Positions 910 through 64,000 of a stretch of DNA of 64,000 nucleotides are shown here, one piece after another. Position numbers and translations under genes: made by a program. Under the pieces are notes generated by a model. It did not search any database. It saw nothing but the letters and a program-made list of their open reading frames with translations, and was not told the origin of the DNA. The stretch comes from Candidatus Woesearchaeota archaeon (GTDB taxonomy: Archaea > Nanobdellota > Nanobdellia > Woesearchaeales > JABMPP01): NCBI GenBank assembly GCA_018303405.1, contig JAGVYD010000011.1:15257-79256 (forward strand), in the 5' to 3' direction. Each line of letters begins with the position of its first letter. Position 1 is the stretch's first letter.

Positions 910-1034
910 AAGTCAAAATCCCCCCTATAATATCACAATATCCTACTACTAACTACTTCTGGCGGCTGATATTATAATAAGCTTTGCACTGGCCTGCCTC
1001 TTTATTATGCATCCCTGGCCATGCTGCTTAAGCC

Positions 1035-1339
1035 CAGTTGAAAATCTCGCTCACAAAGTTCGCTCGGTCAGCATCGGCTTCGTGCTTTATGATTTATGAA
1101 TGATGTCGTATCCCCGCAACGGTTTCGCCCCTTGACGACGAAATTAGCCTTGAGGGGATTTTCGTTACACTCAATCCCCTGAACTCCATGCTGATTAAAA
1201 TGCGGTTCGGGAGACTTCCAAAGGAATGTCTCCCCGGCTTCCGTGCGAACTGAGGCCGGCTTAGGGACGACCCCCTCCGGCATTGACATGCCTATGCGAG
1301 GAGCACTGCGCAACTTGATGCTGACACTATTTTCAACTG
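1035..1339. ncRNA. GC-rich highly structured intergenic element, candidate ncRNA of unknown class
   Basis: About 300 nt, much more GC-rich than its flanks. Termini are complementary (1035-1045 cagttgaaaat with 1329-1339 attttcaactg; 1067-1075 gtcagcatc with 1317-1325 gatgctgac). Multiple internal perfect hairpins, e.g. AGGGGATT...AATCCCCT, GGGAGAC...GTCTCCC and GCCGGC...GCCGGC. Contains one copy of the ~50-nt hairpin repeat also found near tRNA-Ser. The overlapping 131-aa minus-strand ORF is probably a shadow ORF. Confidence 0.3.
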
Positions 1340-1440
1340 AGCACATGCTGCTTAATAACCAATAAAAACATTTATAATGCTGAATGTTAAATACCTTCTT
1401 ATAGATATTTGTATACAACATAAAGGGAAAAAGAGGCCAC

Positions 1441-2409
1441 ATGCCAGTCTTTGAAATAACCAAGGCAGATTTCAGCAGGTTCTTGCAGGATATTATGAAA
1501 AACTATGAGCTTATAGCCCCTGTTAAGACTGACCTTGTAAGATTTCAGCCAATAAAGGACATCTCTCTCATCCACCTTGCAGAAAATTCATTTTTTCCAG
1601 TCAAAGAATTTTTTTTCAGGAAGCAGGAAACACTGTTCACTTTTAATGGCGGGAAAATTGAAGTAAAGCTTGATGCTCCAAAGAAAAGGGCTTTTTTTGG
1701 GCTGAGAAGATGCGACCTGAACGCCATAATGCACCAGGACAGGGCATTCCTGTCAAATACCCCTGACCCATATTACAAAGCGCAGCGCGATGGAGCCCTG
1801 CTTTTAGGCTATCACTGCAACGAAGCGCCAAGCATCTACTGCTTCTGCGGCAGCATGGACCTAAAGGATTTCTTTGACATCATGTTCTTTGACAGGGGGC
1901 GCTGCTACCTGGCCGAGACTGGCAGTGAAAAAGGCGAAGCAGTGATTGCGAAGTCAAAAAAAATGTTCAAGCCAAGCAATTACAGCATTACCGAGTCTGA
2001 CAAGAAAATTGAGGGCACGGACCGGCTGCTCAACAAGGATATTTCTGAACTGTACGACCACCCGGACTGGAAAAAGGGAGTGGACATGTGCATAAGCTGC
2101 GGAGCATGCACAAGCCTTTGCCCGACCTGCTACTGCTTTGAGGTGCACGACCAGACGGAGTTAAAAGACCCAAAAAAATCAAAGCGGGAAAGAACATGGT
2201 CATCATGCCAGGTGAAGGAATTTACCAAGGTTGCAGGCGGCCATGTATTCAGGGACAAGCGGGAGGACAGGTTTAAGCACCGCATCTATCACCAGCTGGA
2301 GTATTTCAGGGAACAGCACGGCATTGACTTATGCGTTGGCTGCGGAAGATGCATAACAGCATGCCCGACCAAGATTGATTTTGTAAAAATAATCAATGAG
2401 ATGAAATGA
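1441..2409 (+). CDS. hydB: Sulfhydrogenase-type [NiFe]-hydrogenase beta subunit (Fe-S protein)
   Basis: 322 aa with two ferredoxin-like Cys clusters (CISCGACTSLCPTCYC and CVGCGRCITACP). First gene of a B-G-D-A subunit order typical of group 3b sulfhydrogenase. Confidence 0.75.
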   Translation: MPVFEITKADFSRFLQDIMKNYELIAPVKTDLVRFQPIKDISLIHLAENSFFPVKEFFFRKQETLFTFNGGKIEVKLDAPKKRAFFGLRRCDLNAIMHQDRAFLSNTPDPYYKAQRDGALLLGYHCNEAPSIYCFCGSMDLKDFFDIMFFDRGRCYLAETGSEKGEAVIAKSKKMFKPSNYSITESDKKIEGTDRLLNKDISELYDHPDWKKGVDMCISCGACTSLCPTCYCFEVHDQTELKDPKKSKRERTWSSCQVKEFTKVAGGHVFRDKREDRFKHRIYHQLEYFREQHGIDLCVGCGRCITACPTKIDFVKIINEMK

Positions 2410-8106: not shown

Positions 8107-8302
8107 TATGGATCATCTCCAGCCATCTCTCAGCTGCTTTTTTGTTGACTTTCTCAATCACGATTCGGCCCTGCACAATAACATAATCGCCTGGCCTGTA
8201 TTTCCTCTCCACAATTTTTGCCTTTCTTTTTTCAGTGTCGTAATCTATGGTTGCCATGTCTTTGCTGATCTTCAGGATTTTTCCAGGATAGGCCAGGCAC
8301 AT
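8090..8302 (-). CDS. hypC: Hydrogenase maturation factor HypC
   Basis: 70 aa starting MCLAYPGKI, the MCLAIP signature of HypC/HupF. Confidence 0.85.
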   Translation of the reverse strand: MCLAYPGKILKISKDMATIDYDTEKRKAKIVERKYRPGDYVIVQGRIVIEKVNKKAAERWLEMIHSGKAC

Positions 8303-8655
8303 CAGTTTTTCACCTTTTTTGCTTTTTTTACGGTTACCTGCCTTATCCTTATATCCCCACCTTCATAAAGTTTTGGGACTTTTCCGCATTTTTCGCAGAC
8401 ATAAAGGCAGAATTCATGCCCCCTTTCAAGCACTTTTGGATGGCCTGAATGGCCACAGTTGCATTTTGCCTTTGCTTTTATCTCCTTTATCTTTATTTTC
8501 CACTTTGTAAGCGTTTCAAGAATTTCCCTTAGTTCATGGTCATGTATCGGGCCAAGTTCTCCAACGTCGAGGATGATTGACTCTATTTCCCCACCTTTTC
8601 CGGCTTTTTTCTGCGCATCATCAATTATTCTTCTTGCAATGACAGTTTCGTGCAT
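8302..8655 (-). CDS. hypA: Hydrogenase nickel-incorporation protein HypA
   Basis: 117 aa starting MHE. Two CxxC pairs (CNCGH...CEKCG) forming the HypA zinc site. Confidence 0.85.
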   Translation of the reverse strand: MHETVIARRIIDDAQKKAGKGGEIESIILDVGELGPIHDHELREILETLTKWKIKIKEIKAKAKCNCGHSGHPKVLERGHEFCLYVCEKCGKVPKLYEGGDIRIRQVTVKKAKKVKN

Positions 8656-27895: not shown

Positions 27896-27994
27896 TGCAC
27901 GGGATGGATTAAGTTTTTATAGTGGCTGAATCTTTTTGCTTCTATCAATCTCGAATTGTCCCAGTTCGTACGATTGAGTGAGCTCACTGCATTC

Positions 27995-59789: not shown

Positions 59790-59836
59790 ACTTTAGGGCA
59801 ATAGCAGCATTCTGGCTTTATTGTCCTGGAAGATAT

Positions 59837-59886
59837 TTGGCACGGAAGGCAGGGAGACGCTCGCTTTGCTCGGTCTCCCGAACTGC
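59837..59886 (+). repeat. 50-bp hairpin repeat, copy 1
   Basis: ttggcacggaaggcagggagacgctcgctttgctcggtctcccgaactgc. Identical to copy 2 and contains the GGGAGAC...GTCTCCC inverted repeat. Confidence 0.8.
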
Positions 59887-59933
59887 ATTTCTTAGGTAAG
59901 ATTTATAATGCGTCATTAAATCCAATATACTGT

Positions 59934-59950
59934 GCCGCGGTCGCTTAGCC
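59934..59950 (+). other. Duplicated 5' fragment of tRNA-Ser (17-19 nt) with its own TATA-like box
   Basis: GCCGCGGTCGCTTAGCC is identical to positions 1-17 of the tRNA-Ser at 60124. Preceded by gatttataatg at about -30, which looks like an archaeal TATA box. The sequence diverges after TAGCC. Confidence 0.6.
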
Positions 59951-59964
59951 ACAACTGGCCTCAG

Positions 59965-60014
59965 TTGGCACGGAAGGCAGGGAGACGCTCGCTTTGCTCG
60001 GTCTCCCGAACTGC
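59965..60014 (+). repeat. 50-bp hairpin repeat, copy 2
   Basis: Perfect 50/50 identity with 59837-59886. A third, diverged copy (GCACGGAAGcCgGGGAGAC...GTCTCCCGAACcGC) lies on the minus strand at 1202-1250. Confidence 0.8.
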
Positions 60015-60123
60015 GACTATCGGCAATAGGGACGGGAATCAATAGCGATTATAACTTTAAAATTACATCGCGTCGGGGAATTTTATGTTCCCCCCGTTTT
60101 TACCAGATTTTTGTTAAAAATCT

Positions 60124-60253
60124 GCCGCGGTCGCTTAGCCCGGTATAGCGCTGGATTGCTAGATACTGTATAACTAGTGTCTTAGAAACCTACTATACCA
60201 TGCAGACATCCAGTGTCCGCAAGGACTCGGGAGTTCAAATCTCCCCCGCGGCG
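60124..60253 (+). tRNA. tRNA-Ser (anticodon GCU) with 46-nt intron at canonical 37/38 position
   Basis: Manual fold: acceptor GCCGCGG/CCGCGGC, D-arm, anticodon stem CTGGA/TCCAG with loop TTGCTA-[intron 60162-60207]-A, long variable arm (GTCC GCAA GGAC), T-arm GGGAG TTCAAAT CTCCC, discriminator G. Oligo-T tract follows. Confidence 0.8.
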
Positions 60254-60290
60254 CTTTTCTTATTTTATAAGGAAGTGAAACGCCAAAAAA

Positions 60291-60560
60291 TTAGTCCTTT
60301 CCCATAAATTTACCAATATACTCCATTATTTTCTCTTTCTTTTCAATATTTATTGAAACATGCTTTCCATAGCCTGTCTTTTTCAAGTACAAAATCCCCT
60401 CTTTAATCAATTCTTCAGAGATTTCCTTAACTCTCCCTTTCAAATCGGGAGGAAAGCTCTTTGCAAGATTCTCAAAGGCAGTGTGGCTATGTTCAAACTT
60501 CCCTTTGCGCGTAAGCTTGTGCAAAATCTTTCCTTTAATCTGTGAATCATTCCACGTCAT
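60291..60560 (-). CDS. Small hypothetical protein (possible winged-helix)
   Basis: 89 aa in AT-rich DNA just 3' of tRNA-Ser. Weak wH-like pattern (GILYLKKTGYGKHVSIN). Confidence 0.25.
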   Translation of the reverse strand: MTWNDSQIKGKILHKLTRKGKFEHSHTAFENLAKSFPPDLKGRVKEISEELIKEGILYLKKTGYGKHVSINIEKKEKIMEYIGKFMGKD

Positions 60561-60632
60561 AAGTCCACCAGAATAGACTTTGAAAGGTTAAATTTATATA
60601 CTTTTCTGTTTATTCAATATCAAGGTAAAAAA

Positions 60633-60962
60633 ATGGAAGAAAAATCGTTATTGCTTAATTTGACGGGAGACTTGCCTTTATTTAGAATAATTGATTTTCT
60701 GCTTGAAAACAAAGGGATGGACTACAGCAAGACAGACATCGCCAAGGGTGCAGGGATTTCAAGGGCATCTTTGTTCAATTACTGGATAGAATTGGAAAAA
60801 CACAGGCTGATAAAAACAACAAGAAGCTTTGGCAAGACAAAGCTGTATACCCTAAACGTTAGCAATCCAATTACACAAAGGATTATTGAGCTTGAGAAAA
60901 CATTGATAAGCGAAGCCATGAACAAAGCTGTGAAGAAAAAAGAAATTTTGGTTGAAAATTGA
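60633..60962 (+). CDS. Winged helix-turn-helix transcriptional regulator, putative
   Basis: 109 aa. DIAKGAGISRASLFNYWIELEKHRLIKTTRSFGKTKLYTL is a typical HTH recognition helix plus wing. Confidence 0.5.
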   Translation: MEEKSLLLNLTGDLPLFRIIDFLLENKGMDYSKTDIAKGAGISRASLFNYWIELEKHRLIKTTRSFGKTKLYTLNVSNPITQRIIELEKTLISEAMNKAVKKKEILVEN

Positions 60963-60996
60963 GTTATTTTTCTGAAACCTTTATTTTTATATATCT

Positions 60997-61587
60997 CTAT
61001 TCTTGTTTGTCAATTTCCCATTCAATTTCTGGATAATGCCTTGGCTTAATTTTCTTGATATTTTTTAATACATACTTTTTGAGTTCTTCCCCATTTTCCT
61101 TTGAATAAGCCCGTACGTTTCCATAAAAGAAATAACTTCCTTTTTGACTCTTGACAATAAGTGCACTGATATAATCATTTACCTTCAGCAAGTTTGGAAA
61201 ATCAATTGTTTTAATTAAGTACTTTTTACTATCTATTACATTCTTAATTAGATAATCTTTTCTGTTAATATGCACAACTTGAAAAAGCGAGTCATTGTAT
61301 TCAACAAAGTTTCTTATAATCTTTCGGTCATTTTTTGTAAAGAAGTCAAGAGGGAATAGCAGTGCATATTCCATTGGCGTTGCGCCCTTAATTTTTCTTT
61401 GAAGCAGAAAATATGATAAGAATCCACTATAATAGGTTGTATCATCTTTTGCTGACTGTGCCTCTTGTGTTGCCTGAAACTCTTTGTTCGCTTTTTGTAA
61501 CTCTTTAGGGTGCAGATTGTTTATGAAACCAAGCACTTTTCTAATCACTTTTGTTTCTGGCTGTATTTTACCCCTTGTCATAATCAA
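60997..61587 (-). CDS. Hypothetical protein (196 aa), third gene of AT-rich cassette
   Basis: About 30 percent GC. Overlaps the upstream gene by 20 nt. No motif recognised. Confidence 0.3.
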   Translation of the reverse strand: MIMTRGKIQPETKVIRKVLGFINNLHPKELQKANKEFQATQEAQSAKDDTTYYSGFLSYFLLQRKIKGATPMEYALLFPLDFFTKNDRKIIRNFVEYNDSLFQVVHINRKDYLIKNVIDSKKYLIKTIDFPNLLKVNDYISALIVKSQKGSYFFYGNVRAYSKENGEELKKYVLKNIKKIKPRHYPEIEWEIDKQE

Positions 61588-61951
61588 AGCCCATTTTCTC
61601 CAAATCTATTCTCAAATACTTTTCCTGCAGGTCATAAACAGTATTATACAAATAATCATTATCCCATTTTGTAAAAATCCCGATATTTTTATGAATACTT
61701 TCTATTAGTTCCATTGGTTTGAGTGATGGCATTGTCATAAAGAAAAAGAAGAAAATTTTATCGTATATCTTTATTGTCACATCAATAAGCTTATATTTTA
61801 CAGAAATAGCTTTTAAAGCATTTCTTAGCCCTTCTTTTTCCTGTATTGTTTCATCATTCATAGTTTTATGACAGTAGAAATATCCTCCTTGGTGCACTGA
61901 GTGGCTGAATTTGTATAATTTTCTTCCTCTTTTATCAACTTCAATCTTCAT
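61568..61951 (-). CDS. Hypothetical protein (127 aa), second gene of AT-rich cassette
   Basis: Translationally coupled to flanking genes (4-nt and 20-nt overlaps). No motif recognised. Confidence 0.3.
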   Translation of the reverse strand: MKIEVDKRGRKLYKFSHSVHQGGYFYCHKTMNDETIQEKEGLRNALKAISVKYKLIDVTIKIYDKIFFFFFMTMPSLKPMELIESIHKNIGIFTKWDNDYLYNTVYDLQEKYLRIDLEKMGFDYDKG

Positions 61952-62229
61952 CTTACATCCAGCCCTTTCATTTTCTTCAGCTTGCTCTGGGGGTTAAATG
62001 TCCAGAGCACTTTATCATCGGAGAAGACTATTTTTCCGCTATATGCCAGATAATCCAATATTGCAATCACTGTCTGATGCATCACCTGCTTTGGCAGCTT
62101 TCTTTTCAATTCAGCAACCGATATCAGACTATCAGCTTTTTGCAGAGTATCCTCTACCATAAGAACTGTATTTAAGGTGGGGCTTCTTTGTTCTGCATAG
62201 TTCCTTGTCTTTAAGGTTATTGTTTGCAT
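61948..62229 (-). CDS. Hypothetical protein (93 aa), first gene of AT-rich cassette, possible wH domain
   Basis: ISVAELKRKLPKQVMHQTVIAILDYLAYSGKIV resembles a winged-helix recognition helix. Weak call. Confidence 0.3.
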   Translation of the reverse strand: MQTITLKTRNYAEQRSPTLNTVLMVEDTLQKADSLISVAELKRKLPKQVMHQTVIAILDYLAYSGKIVFSDDKVLWTFNPQSKLKKMKGLDVR

Positions 62230-62336
62230 ATCAACTGATATAATATCAACTGATATATAAACTTTTCTATTTTTATGTTAATTAAATCAGTGAGTTTAAT
62301 AAACAACTAGGCATTCTCAAGTAAAAAAGTGGTAAG

Positions 62337-62404
62337 AAAAGGGGGGGGGGCGTTATCATTGTTTATAAAGGAAAAAGATGATACCCCCCCGGCGTTCTAA
62401 CTCC
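62337..62404. other. Homopolymer G10 / C7 inverted repeat hairpin
   Basis: aaaaGGGGGGGGGGcg...43 nt...ataCCCCCCCggcg. The G-run at 62341-62350 and the C-run at 62394-62400 can pair. Intergenic between the AT-rich cassette and hicB. Confidence 0.6.
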
Positions 62405-62476
62405 AAGTCAGAAGACTACCACACTGCCTTTTCATCTTGAAATATGCAAAAATATATAAATTCATGAGCTATTTGG

Positions 62477-62707
62477 GTGACCATGCCAAAAACATTTCAC
62501 GTCCTTATCGAGCAAGACGAAGATGGAGTTTACACAGGCAAGGTGCCAGAGCTCCGGGGCTGCCTCAGCCAGGGAGACACCCTAGATGAGCTCATGAAAA
62601 ACATCAAGGAAGCGATTGAGCTATGCCTCGAGGTCCAATCTGAGAAAAACCAGAAGCTTAGCCAGGACAATATCAGATTTGTGGGTGTGCAGCAGCTCGA
62701 GGTGTGA
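62477..62707 (+). CDS. hicB: HicB-family antitoxin
   Basis: 76 aa. FHVLIEQDEDGVYTGKVPELRGCLSQGDTLDELMKNIKEAIELCLE matches the HicB/UPF0150 consensus. Confidence 0.75.
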   Translation: MTMPKTFHVLIEQDEDGVYTGKVPELRGCLSQGDTLDELMKNIKEAIELCLEVQSEKNQKLSQDNIRFVGVQQLEV

Positions 62708-62710
62708 GCC

Positions 62711-62935
62711 TTGAAGCTGCCGCTGCTTTCTTCCAGGGAACTCTGCAAATTCCTTGAAAAAGAAGGATTCAAGGCGGAAAGACAGAAGGGCAGCCACAGA
62801 TTTTACAAGCATGCGGACGGAAGAAGCACAGTTGTCCCTGTTCATGCAAACAAGGATATCAGCAGGGGATTGCTTAAGGCAATCCTTGAAGAAATTGGGA
62901 TGGAAAGGGAAGAATTCTTCAGAAAACTAAAATAG
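62711..62935 (+). CDS. hicA: HicA-family toxin (mRNA interferase)
   Basis: 74 aa. LLSSRELCKFLEKEGFKAERQKGSHRFYKH...TVVPVH matches HicA/YcfA with the catalytic GSH motif. Confidence 0.75.
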   Translation: MKLPLLSSRELCKFLEKEGFKAERQKGSHRFYKHADGRSTVVPVHANKDISRGLLKAILEEIGMEREEFFRKLK

Positions 62936-63062
62936 GAATCTGCGCCTTCATGGCCTGATGTCCCCCCCTGGCGCTTTTATTTCTTCTTTTTGCCATAGGG
63001 ATTGCTTTTCCAAAATTGGGCTGTTGTTTTTGGTTATAGGAGCCTTTATATAAGATGTTCAC

Positions 63063-63620
63063 TTGGGTTTTATCATGGACATGCCCGACCCAAACTTCCC
63101 AAAATTGACAAGGAATGAGAAAACAGTCCTAAAAAAAATCATAGAGCAGGCCAAGGTGCCGGATATGGAAATCGCCCAGAAAATGGGGCTCTCGCAGCAG
63201 GCGATCTTTAGGATAAGGCACAAGCTCGAAAAGGTCGGGATAATAAAGGGTTATATGCCAATAATAGATTTCAAGAAAATAGGTATTGAGACATTGGTTG
63301 TTCTCGGCATAAAATTCAAGGATCCCGTCTGGGAAAAATACTCCGAAGAGCAAATTGCAGAGAAGATACGAAAGATCCCGCAAGTGATAATATGCTACAG
63401 GATTCCAGAGTCGGGCGTATCACACCTTCTTATCATGGGGTTCAGGAACATGGACCACAAGGACAGGTACCTCATGTCCTTGCAGACAAAATACTCCAAG
63501 GAAATTGAAATAGTAAGCGTCTATCCATTCTCAGTGGACAGAATCATCAAGACAAACAACGTCGGGCTATTGAACATAATCCTTGACAAGGACGAGTTCG
63601 GCAGGAATGATTTTTTCTAG
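63063..63620 (+). CDS. Lrp/AsnC-family transcriptional regulator
   Basis: 185 aa. N-terminal HTH (MEIAQKMGLSQQAIFRIRHKLEKVGIIKGY) and C-terminal RAM domain. Confidence 0.75.
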   Translation: MGFIMDMPDPNFPKLTRNEKTVLKKIIEQAKVPDMEIAQKMGLSQQAIFRIRHKLEKVGIIKGYMPIIDFKKIGIETLVVLGIKFKDPVWEKYSEEQIAEKIRKIPQVIICYRIPESGVSHLLIMGFRNMDHKDRYLMSLQTKYSKEIEIVSVYPFSVDRIIKTNNVGLLNIILDKDEFGRNDFF

Positions 63621-63699
63621 GGTAATCAACAATCACCTGACCTGTTGAAGTTGATTTTTACTACCACAGTATATTATACCTTCCCTACTTAATACTGCT

Positions 63700-63960
63700 A
63701 TGGTTAAGCCAATTAAGGCATTCAGGTGTAGGCACTGCATGAGGCAGAGCAAGGGCAAGGTCAAACTTGTCGGGCTTACAATGGTATGCCCTTATTGCGG
63801 AAAACCAAGTGAGGAGATCAGTTTGGTGAGCAAACTTAGAGCAGCTGAAATCAAAAAGCCGCACAAGGCGGCCGAAATCAAAGAGCTGCTTGTAGATAAT
63901 CTCGGGGCAGGGATGGATTATCAGAAATCTGCCCTGAGGCTCTACTTTGAGGTGAATTGA
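63700..63960 (+). CDS. Small zinc-ribbon protein
   Basis: 86 aa with CRHC...CPYCG (two CxxC pairs). Confidence 0.35.
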   Translation: MVKPIKAFRCRHCMRQSKGKVKLVGLTMVCPYCGKPSEEISLVSKLRAAEIKKPHKAAEIKELLVDNLGAGMDYQKSALRLYFEVN

Positions 63961-64000
63961 GATGTGGCAGACAGATCTGGATTTTATGTACGAAAGTGAG

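Follow-up and report, generated by a model that had tools for sequence, protein, structure and literature searches.

A hairpin repeat family bracketed by duplicated gene ends in a woesearchaeal genome

DPANN archaea have tiny genomes, in which mobile elements and non-coding RNAs are barely charted. Elsewhere, the CIMEs of streptococci are known as decayed cis-mobilizable integrative elements that keep both attL and attR. Islands that integrate at transfer RNA (tRNA) genes restore the gene that they split and leave a displaced fragment of it behind (Islander; PMC4383910). Here we analyse a stretch of 64,000 nucleotides (nt) from a Candidatus Woesearchaeota archaeon (contig JAGVYD010000011.1, forward strand; the whole stretch is referred to as the window), which carries three copies of a hairpin of about 50 nt that we call hairpin E, or E. 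This hairpin is a non-chance, structured repeat family that is absent from Rfam and is associated with gene-end duplications at tRNA genes and other genes. With moderate confidence, we read it as the junction-proximal core of integrative cassettes, miniature or decayed, which would rebuild the gene end that they interrupt and put an E-containing RNA behind a captured host promoter.

The layout around E resembles that of the tRNA-gene islands in several respects. In the window and at three related loci (L085, L013 and L015; loci outside the window carry L numbers throughout), a displaced fragment and a regenerated intact gene stand in direct orientation and bracket the insert, which provides the missing gene end. 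Arrays at one tRNA gene can be tandem or nested (L013), and a classical tyrosine-integrase element lies 3′ of tRNA-Ser(UGA) in the same genome. Unlike the islands, however, the inserts are only 90–290 nt long and contain neither an integrase nor an open reading frame (ORF), the integrase at locus L084 lying outside the cassette. Moreover, it is the 5′ end of the gene that is displaced, which is rare, the junctions fall at tRNA nt 7 or 17–19, and the promoter is brought by the insert; the starts and ends of protein genes are used too, and a structured hairpin module sits directly at the junction.

Other described systems share fewer of these properties. With the CIMEs, the cassettes have in common that they are non-autonomous, carry att-like direct repeats at a gene end, are presumed to be mobilized in trans or to be remnants, and accrete at one site, but CIMEs are bacterial, kilobases long and without a conserved RNA-like hairpin core; to our knowledge, they do not capture a host promoter for a non-coding cargo. 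Repetitive extragenic palindromic (REP) sequences, bacterial interspersed mosaic elements and miniature inverted-repeat transposable elements (MITEs) are also short, dispersed, intergenic hairpin repeats with conserved stems, variable loops and sometimes paired copies, whereas E always lies within a larger ordered unit and its copy number is so far low, at 11 or more. The attC sites of integrons are likewise folded hairpins with conserved stem bases, a variable tip and an association with tyrosine recombinases and small cassettes. By reading, E contains no RYYYAAC/GTTRRRY boxes (its reverse strand has GTTCGGG, with C in place of the purine, and there is no 5′ box), and attI, intI and an array of cassettes are all absent, the cassettes at hand being non-coding and placed at gene termini. 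In contrast to the split or permuted tRNA genes of the Nanoarchaeum type, which leave no intact gene copy, the displaced fragment is followed, 173 nt downstream, by an intact tRNA-Ser gene whose first 17 nt are the same. Bulge–helix–bulge processing and a permuted or split tRNA were also tried as identities and rejected, since by inspection no such motif could be drawn at the ends of the large elements described below or at the fragment junctions. Finally, the loci differ from a clustered regularly interspaced short palindromic repeat (CRISPR) array in having at most two copies each and in sharing the same 76-nt spacer at three loci.

Copies, genomic distribution and fold of hairpin E

Three copies of E lie in the window, two near its right end and one near its left end on the opposite strand:

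59837–59886, plus strand: E copy A, core only, found as an exact 50-nt repeat and by covariance model R1, 48 nt past the stop codon of a glycosyltransferase gene
59965–60014, plus strand: E copy B, consisting of GCACGGAAG, the 7-bp stem GGGAGAC/GUCUCCC and then GAACUGC, found as an exact repeat and by R1
1200–1264, minus strand: E copy C with a degenerate hp1 (a second small hairpin, see below), within large element 1, found by R1 and by an exact pattern match

The identity of copies A and B is 100% and spans exactly 50 nt. The GCACGGAAGNNNGGGAGAC pattern has three exact matches in the window, counting copy C on the minus strand (1228–1246), against a chance expectation of 0.28 when three mismatches are permitted, and none of 100 shuffled sequences gave three. 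The covariance model R1 scored copy C at 77.5 bits (1200–1264, minus strand) and copy B at 77.1 bits (59950–60016, plus strand), each with an expect value of about 1e-17, and copy A at 49.4 bits (59803–59888, plus strand; expect value 3e-10). Between copies B and C, an inverted match joins 1228–1257 to 59957–59986 (30 nt, 90%), and their likeness reaches about 15 nt further 5′ (GGCCTCAGTT) to form the second small hairpin, hp1, which copy A does not have. The original prediction, made from the letters of the window, had described two identical 50-bp copies around a duplicated 5′ fragment of tRNA-Ser, a diverged third copy on the minus strand at 1202–1250 within a structured region of about 300 nt, and a three-fold recurrence that chance would hardly produce. 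Each of these points was borne out: the fragment at 59934–59950 recurs exactly at 60124–60140, the third copy is carried by the pattern statistics and the R1 score, the recurrence by the shuffles, and the region around copy C (1032–1343, minus strand) has a fold z-score of −3.5.

The perfect identity of copies A and B ends sharply. Downstream of copy A the sequence reads ATTTCTTAGG and downstream of copy B GACTATCGG; the two are not related, copy B running on into the tail of its cassette, whereas the 3′ flank of copy A (ATTT) agreed in a BLAST comparison with the large-element type GAACTGCATTT. With different sequence after each copy, the pair cannot be put down to simple tandem duplication. 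Since the identity stops at the 50-nt edges and the flanks are unrelated, it would reflect a local duplication or a gene-conversion tract, and gene conversion best explains a tract of 50 nt with sharp edges shared by copies 128 nt apart. Copy A would then be an older solo copy 128 nt upstream that was homogenized with copy B over the 50-nt core only. The same concerted behaviour is seen at locus L016, where the two copies of a pair, E1 and E2, both have a private UUGC/GCAA change.

We found that E is a multi-copy family of one genome. The proteins of the window are identical to those of the woesearchaeote 'archaeon GW2011_AR3' from Rifle aquifer groundwater. A strict pattern scan of the Joint Genome Institute (JGI) metagenomes, which was not exhaustive and did not have the window's own contigs among its returns, yielded six further E loci; it added nine copies, in four additional cassette loci and a second large element. 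Protein identity to GW2011_AR3 and to the metagenome-assembled genome (MAG) J4227 places all of these loci in the genome of the window. The epimerase at L014 is QS98_C0002G0019 of AR3, and the proteins at L016, L013, L012 and L015 are those of AR3 or MAG J4227. In total, the GW2011_AR3 genome has at least 11 copies of E at no fewer than seven loci:

Window: copies A and B at tRNA-Ser(GCU), and copy C in large element 1
L014: one copy, in a second element of about 310 nt
L012: one solo copy
L015 and L084: an E1/E2 pair upstream of tRNA-Ser(UGA)
L013: an E1/E2 pair inside a tRNA-Glu array
L016: an E1/E2 pair at the 5′ end of a RIO kinase gene

A unit made of E1, a spacer and E2 recurs at 95–98% identity in three of these contexts: at tRNA-Ser(UGA), at tRNA-Glu and at the RIO kinase gene. 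A genome-wide count of copies had been proposed together with the prediction, as had a check for clustering near tRNA genes and integration sites; the count so far is the lower bound given above, and copies do gather at tRNA genes and integration sites, with cassettes at tRNA-Ser and tRNA-Glu. When R1 was run over the window and about 200 kb of sequence, non-redundant and drawn from GW2011_AR3 and relatives, it recovered known E copies only, and two scans of IMG/VR for a viral origin returned chance matches only. Several of the metagenome contigs end inside E or in the tRNA-Ser region, as expected of repeats and variable sites. Among them, contigs L010 and L083 end within the tRNA-Ser region.

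To describe the fold, we aligned nine distinct copies of E; the strict search pattern had demanded the conserved motifs, which makes their invariance partly a matter of ascertainment. The first hairpin, hp1, has 6 bp and a GCCU loop. E itself is closed by a 3-bp helix, GCA/UGC, followed by an asymmetric internal loop in which CGGAAGNNN faces GAAC, and then by hairpin hp2, with an invariant 7-bp stem (GGGAGAC/GUCUCCC) whose tip is either a 4-bp extension or a second type of loop. Across the alignment, 93% of the cells in paired columns can pair, compared with about 40% when the partners are slid. Five pairs are altered on both sides, and none of 500 shuffles matched the observed covariation score. 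Examples of compensatory change are the replacement of GAGCUG/CAGCUC by CAACUG/CAGUUG in hp1, which alters two pairs, and of UUCC/GGAA by UUGC/GCAA at the tip of hp2, and one-sided changes in the stems yield G–U pairs on the E-sense strand. Because of the paired cells, the compensatory changes and the G–U pairs on that strand, the alignment argues that E is under selection for its hairpin fold, as RNA or as single-stranded DNA. The conserved 7-bp stem and constrained structure that had been proposed are thus upheld by the nine-copy alignment and its covariation. Two details of the proposal gave way: the conserved flanks are not purely single-stranded, as GCA and UGC can pair in eight of the nine sequences, and the inner loop does not vary freely but comes in two types, one of them the 4-bp stem extension with its compensatory change.

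The family has no counterpart among the described RNA families that were searched. In the window and seven related loci, the covariance models of Rfam 15, ribozymes, riboswitches and small RNAs among them, at the gathering score and at an expect value of up to 10, gave no match to E, the cassettes or the large elements, and hit only tRNAs. Likenesses noted by eye to helix 8 of the signal recognition particle (SRP) RNA, to the CR-I, CR-II and CR-V regions of ribonuclease P (RNase P) RNA, to K-turns, to the hammerhead core (CGAAAC) and to loop C of 5S ribosomal RNA (CCGAAC...ACGGAAG) were rejected as superficial or in the wrong order.

Duplicated gene ends and restored genes

Archaeal promoters are marked by TATA boxes about 25 nt upstream of the start, and terminators by runs of T. 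Around copy B, the following features lie in order between the native side of the tRNA-Ser(GCU) gene and its intact copy:

59902–59909, plus strand: TATA-like box TTTATAAT, 25–32 nt upstream of the displaced tRNA fragment; presumed native tRNA-Ser promoter
59934–59950, plus strand: displaced 5′ fragment of tRNA-Ser(GCU), nt 1–17, GCCGCGGTCGCTTAGCC, ending in the D-loop; found as a direct repeat
59952–59967, plus strand: hp1 (CAACUG/CAGUUG, loop GCCU), the 5′ edge of the cassette; found by the alignment with compensatory changes
60015–60074, plus strand: cassette tail with a CUAU...AUAG hairpin, homologous by BLAST to the tail after E2 in L015 and L013
60075–60101, plus strand: hairpin GGGGAA...UUCCCC followed by a T-run; likely terminator
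60102–60123, plus strand: ACCAGATTTTTGTTAAAAATCT, an A/T-rich palindromic module adjoining tRNA +1; candidate replacement promoter, occurring once in the window
60124–60253, plus strand: intact tRNA-Ser(GCU), interrupted at the canonical position by a 48-nt intron; 43.4 bits with the Rfam tRNA model

The exact direct repeat here is 18 nt long (59933–59950 and 60123–60140), as it includes one T upstream of GCCGCGGTCGCTTAGCC, which occurs again at 60124–60140. The cassette in between is 173 nt long and has no ORF. The left promoter is probably the native promoter of tRNA-Ser, because it recurs before a displaced tRNA-Ser(UGA) fragment in another host context: AAGATTTATAAT...CAATATA is common to it and to the sequence ahead of that fragment in L085. 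The predicted transcript of the cassette is an RNA of about 170 nt, from 59934 to approximately 60101, with a fold z-score of −2.2. A module homologous to the likely terminator is found in L013 and L015, where GAGAGGC...GCCUCUC is followed by TTGTTTTT. The palindromic module that precedes the intact gene contains ACCAGATTTTTnTTAAAAATCT, and it matches, at 96.7% over 30 nt, the modules preceding tRNA-Ser(UGA) in L015 and the tRNA-Glu fragment in L013; as near-identical modules precede tRNAs elsewhere in the genome, this candidate replacement promoter appears to travel with the cassettes. The intact tRNA-Ser(GCU) was found by the Rfam tRNA model and missed by ARAGORN in bacterial mode, because of its 48-nt intron.

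All E units lie between direct duplicates of local sequence, the length of which differs from site to site:

Window, tRNA-Ser: 18 nt
L085, tRNA-Ser(UGA), with a different cassette: 23 nt
L012, 3′ end of an ORF: 29 nt
L015: 60 nt
L016, RIO kinase gene from its ATG: 41 nt
L013, nested insert: at least 96 nt
Two large elements: 12 nt and 9 nt

Cassettes of 90–290 nt lie between the displaced gene fragment and the regenerated gene, and always start with hp1 and E. The outer edge of the duplication is a gene boundary, that is, tRNA +1, an ATG or a stop codon, and in the tRNA cases it falls no more than 1–4 nt from +1; the exception is L015, where the duplication goes past tRNA +1 by 53 nt on the upstream side and enters the promoter module. 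The inner junctions in tRNA genes lie after nt 17 (window and L013), nt 19 (L085) and nt 7 (L015). At L016, the ATG of the RIO kinase gene marks the exact start of the duplication; there is no likeness upstream of it, and the two copies of the duplication differ at three third-codon positions only. At L012, by contrast with these 5′ ends, the duplication runs into the stop codon of the gene, and the insert provides a new in-frame Ile codon and stop. Beside each regenerated gene, A/T-rich sequence is found at a promoter-like distance.

The same arrangement occurs with another cassette. At L085, the tRNA-Ser(UGA) gene is the one seen in L015 and L084, and it has a different 5′ cassette in a different host background. 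This second cassette type, which we call type Y, follows displaced 17–19-nt tRNA fragments at L085:9640–9830 and at L013:7740–7840 and 8215–8315 (minus strand), at tRNA-Ser(UGA) and tRNA-Glu, respectively; it consists of three hairpins, the last of which is GGATTTGCnnnCGCAAATC. Type Y thus shows that the arrangement, in which a tRNA 5′ fragment is followed by a hairpin cassette, a new promoter and then the intact tRNA, is not limited to E.

On the other side of tRNA-Ser(UGA), 87 nt downstream in the GW2011_AR3 genome, lies a tyrosine integrase gene. From the T arm of the tRNA onward, the integrase-side sequence is identical in L084 and L085, which differ in host context, and this identity marks a classical integrative element at the 3′ end of the tRNA gene. 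At L084:9829–14685, the tRNA-Ser(UGA) gene, the XerA-like tyrosine integrase gene (L084:10001–11224), two hypothetical genes, an RT-16 RNA (Rfam, 77.5 bits) and a gene for a group-II-like or DRT-like reverse transcriptase of 430 amino acids (L084:13393–14685) follow one another. Further along (L084:14712–17543), a gene for a PINA-type Holliday-junction ATPase is split by an intein with a LAGLIDADG homing endonuclease domain. Downstream of tRNA-Ser(GCU) in the window, no integrase, second att copy or second copy of the tRNA 3′ end was found within 12 kb. The sequence directly 3′ of that gene (60254–64000, continuing into L080:7772–12900) is a low-GC island (32–37%) with small hypothetical ORFs, helix-turn-helix proteins and a HicAB pair.

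Large structured elements built from the same modules

Copy C is part of a larger unit, which is listed here with its associated features:

1032–1343, minus strand: large element 1, about 310 nt, fold z-score −3.5, a rod-like fold with multiple helices
1020–1031: first copy of a 12-nt direct repeat, CATGCTGCTTAA, set flush against one end of large element 1
1344–1355: second copy of CATGCTGCTTAA, set flush against the opposite end
1112–1143, minus strand: leader-like segment UUUCGUCGUCAAGGGGCGAAACCGUU followed by GCGGGG, 96.7% and 93.3% identical over 30 nt to L030 and L038

Large element 1 has a terminal helix of 13–14 bp, a second helix of 9 bp and E copy C, and downstream of E a hairpin GGGGAUUGAG...AAUCCCC, then a tRNA-leader-like hairpin and then GCGGGG. 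A paralogue lies beside an unrelated epimerase gene at L014:1235–1542, and its identity to large element 1 is 79% overall and 91% in the core. It has a fold z-score of −3.7 and is flanked by a different flush direct repeat of 9 nt, GAAATTGCT. RNAalifold predicted 88 pairs for the two paralogues, of which nine are altered on both sides, including two A–U to U–A swaps in the terminal helix. On the E-sense strand, each element is preceded by a TATA-like box at a distance of about 23 nt, and their A/T-rich flanks also offer TATA-like sequence on the opposite strand; the strand call of the large elements therefore rests mainly on the orientation of the embedded modules. An ORF of 131 amino acids had been called over large element 1 (1068–1463, minus strand; gene call on contig L003), but it is probably spurious and is not conserved in the paralogue: the corresponding strand of L014:1236–1545 has no ORF of 60 amino acids or more.

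The modules recur outside these elements. The 76-nt spacer between E1 and E2 in the cassettes is a diverged version of the hairpin-plus-leader of the large elements, which is why we describe large elements and cassettes as mosaics of the same modules. Furthermore, in two other DPANN genomes (L030 and L038), a segment of the UUUCGUCGUCAAGGGGCGAAACCGUU type, which both large elements contain, directly adjoins tRNA genes that start with GCGGGGG. In both, at L030:1020–1104 in a Nanoarchaeota MAG and L038:2045–2127 in an Iainarchaeum MAG, a hairpin is followed by TCGTCGTC(ct)CAAGGGGCGAAACCnTT adjoining the tRNA. The distribution of the leader segment looks sporadic in a scan of 185,579 species genomes with the exact motif of the large element, which gave two archaeal matches and otherwise mostly chance matches in GC-rich bacteria. 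Separately, the window's tRNA-Leu gene (27914–27994) is preceded by a TATA-like box at a distance of about 75 nt and by a structured leader, about 50 nt long, which holds GAUUGAGUG, the motif of the large-element hairpin GGGGAUUGAGUG.

A search for an empty site found the nearest relatives of the flanking hydrogenase gene to be 64% identical and not syntenic, with no unoccupied allele among them. A woesearchaeote with a 64%-identical homologue has, at L071:5845–6172, a gap of 327 nt in a sulfhydrogenase-like operon that contains several unrelated perfect hairpins, for example GCCAAATTTTTGCCTGCAAAAATTTGGC.

Proposed integrative cassettes and alternative explanations

The layout at the E loci fits site-specific (Campbell-type) integration, in which the displaced gene end with its native promoter would come first, followed by the cassette, at whose far end a replacement promoter or stop codon would connect to the regenerated gene. 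In the window, transcription from the native TATA box through nt 1–17 of tRNA-Ser would yield an RNA of about 170 nt with hp1, copy B and the hairpin with its T-run, after which the A/T-rich palindromic module would drive the intact tRNA-Ser(GCU). As the cassettes have no integrase of their own, they would be mobilized in trans, and their cargo would be the E-containing RNA expressed from the captured host promoter. This recombination mechanism, and any function of the RNA, are our inference. Gene ends are restored, displaced fragments are left behind and the duplications are not of fixed length; for these reasons, the pattern follows the logic of an integrative element and not that of a transposase.

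Several of our results weigh against integration. No recombinase is encoded in any cassette, and neither an empty site nor an excised circle was found, the near-identical RIO kinase contigs (P0121) ending inside the E unit. Integrases are known to use sublocations at the anticodon loop, the T loop and the junction of the T and acceptor stems, and a 5′ fragment was displaced in 159 of 3,919 Islander islands (PMC4383910). The crossovers at tRNA nt 7 or 17–19, in the acceptor stem or D-loop, fall outside those sublocations and leave 5′ fragments, which are rare, and one family of elements would need many target-specific cores. The 9–12-nt repeats at the large elements look more like target-site duplications, and the terminal helices of these elements co-vary as RNA helices do, and not as binding sites of a recombinase or transposase would. 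In addition, the search pattern itself accounts for part of the invariance of GCACGGAAG and CCCGAAC, and the strict metagenome scan was not exhaustive, the window's own contigs being absent from its returns.

Part of the evidence could be accommodated without any mobile element. E might belong to an ordinary chromosomal family of small RNA (sRNA) genes, acting in trans or in cis, locally duplicated and served by tRNA-type promoters, with the tRNA fragments as by-products of tandem promoter duplication. A structure conserved through compensatory changes, TATA-like boxes at the right distance, terminators of a hairpin and a T-run after the units, two large elements that both fold well (z-scores of −3.5 and −3.7) and tandem copies that are closer within a locus than between loci, as in concerted evolution, would all be at home in such a family. 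We nevertheless consider it unlikely, given that the same unit occurs in unrelated contexts (the start of one protein gene and the 3′ end of another) with duplicated ends and a restored gene, that simple tandem duplication fails for the window, where the sequences downstream of A and B are unrelated, and that the strict scan, within its non-exhaustive reach, gave loci of a single genome. It is more doubtful still that the copies are non-autonomous MITE- or REP-like transposons whose transposase lies elsewhere and whose flanking repeats are target-site duplications. Their dispersal, and the flush 12- and 9-nt repeats with terminal inverted repeats of 13–15 nt on both large elements, speak for such an origin; however, the repeats range from 9 to at least 96 nt and so have no fixed length, the cassettes have no terminal inverted repeats, and those of the large elements differ yet stay complementary, unlike a transposase binding site. 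The edges of the duplications are gene boundaries, the differences between their copies are synonymous, and no transposase was found in the limited sample of ORFs scanned near E loci. The idea of a stand-alone 50-nt REP- or MITE-like repeat, which the original prediction had entertained, does not survive these comparisons: REP sequences are imperfect palindromes of 20–40 nt headed by GTAG, whereas none of the 11 copies has GTAG ahead of the stem, GCACGGAAG standing there instead; the cassettes end without inverted repeats, the duplications are long and variable, and E is one module of larger units. For REP-associated tyrosine transposases of the IS200/IS605-like Y1 type, some of the ORFs near E loci, within about 200 kb of the genome, were scanned and gave no match.

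Spread through RNA would explain other details. In a process like that of short interspersed nuclear elements, a transcript starting at tRNA +1 would be cut by RNase P at the next tRNA, reverse-transcribed and re-inserted at gene starts. Unit edges at, or within 1–4 nt of, tRNA +1 in three cases and duplications of variable length, which are typical of target-primed insertion, would suit this scheme, and one E locus of the genome has a reverse transcriptase gene with an RT-16 RNA at a distance of 3.5 kb. Yet that enzyme is group-II-like or a defence (DRT-like) reverse transcriptase with a cognate RNA of its own, no 3′ end or tail is common to the copies, the internal terminators and promoter modules of the units are unexpected in a processed RNA unless there was read-through, and the duplications at L085 and L015 extend upstream of +1, which together make this route very improbable in our view. 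In some methanogens, the genes for 7S RNA are linked to tRNA-Ser genes, and the copies of E near tRNA-Ser might accordingly be pseudogene pieces of an SRP (7S) or RNase P RNA encoded by the region of about 300 nt. That region has the right size (approximately 310 nt) and a long terminal helix, but a 650-nt search gave no Rfam match even at an expect value of up to 10, the genome has two copies of the element, 79% identical and set in unrelated contexts, and it holds a tRNA-leader module with GCGGGG; we give this identity scarcely any credence.

Returning to the integrative cassettes, one could go further and see in them an undescribed class of archaeal mobile element, in which promoter-hijacking miniature integrative cassettes would settle a few nucleotides inside the 5′ ends of highly expressed genes. 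Each would carry a promoter and a gene start, so that the host gene survives, with a structured sRNA, built around E and expressed from the captured native promoter, as sole cargo; the elements of about 310 nt would be the master or full-length form, and E would be recognized by a recombinase or reverse transcriptase acting in trans. The targets of such hijacking may be the tRNA-Ser, tRNA-Glu and RIO kinase genes. As a joint claim, we regard this extension as quite improbable.

Whatever the route by which they arose, the E loci have practical consequences. Displaced 5′ or 3′ fragments only 90–290 nt from the restored gene are expected to be missed by island finders that need an integrase and kilobase sizes. 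Such fragments, together with an intron-containing tRNA-Ser, confuse tRNA annotation, as in the case of ARAGORN, and metagenome assemblies are interrupted by the repeats at such places. Should the cassettes prove mobile, they would represent a minimal form of integration that restores gene ends, combined with selfish expression of an RNA from host tRNA promoters.

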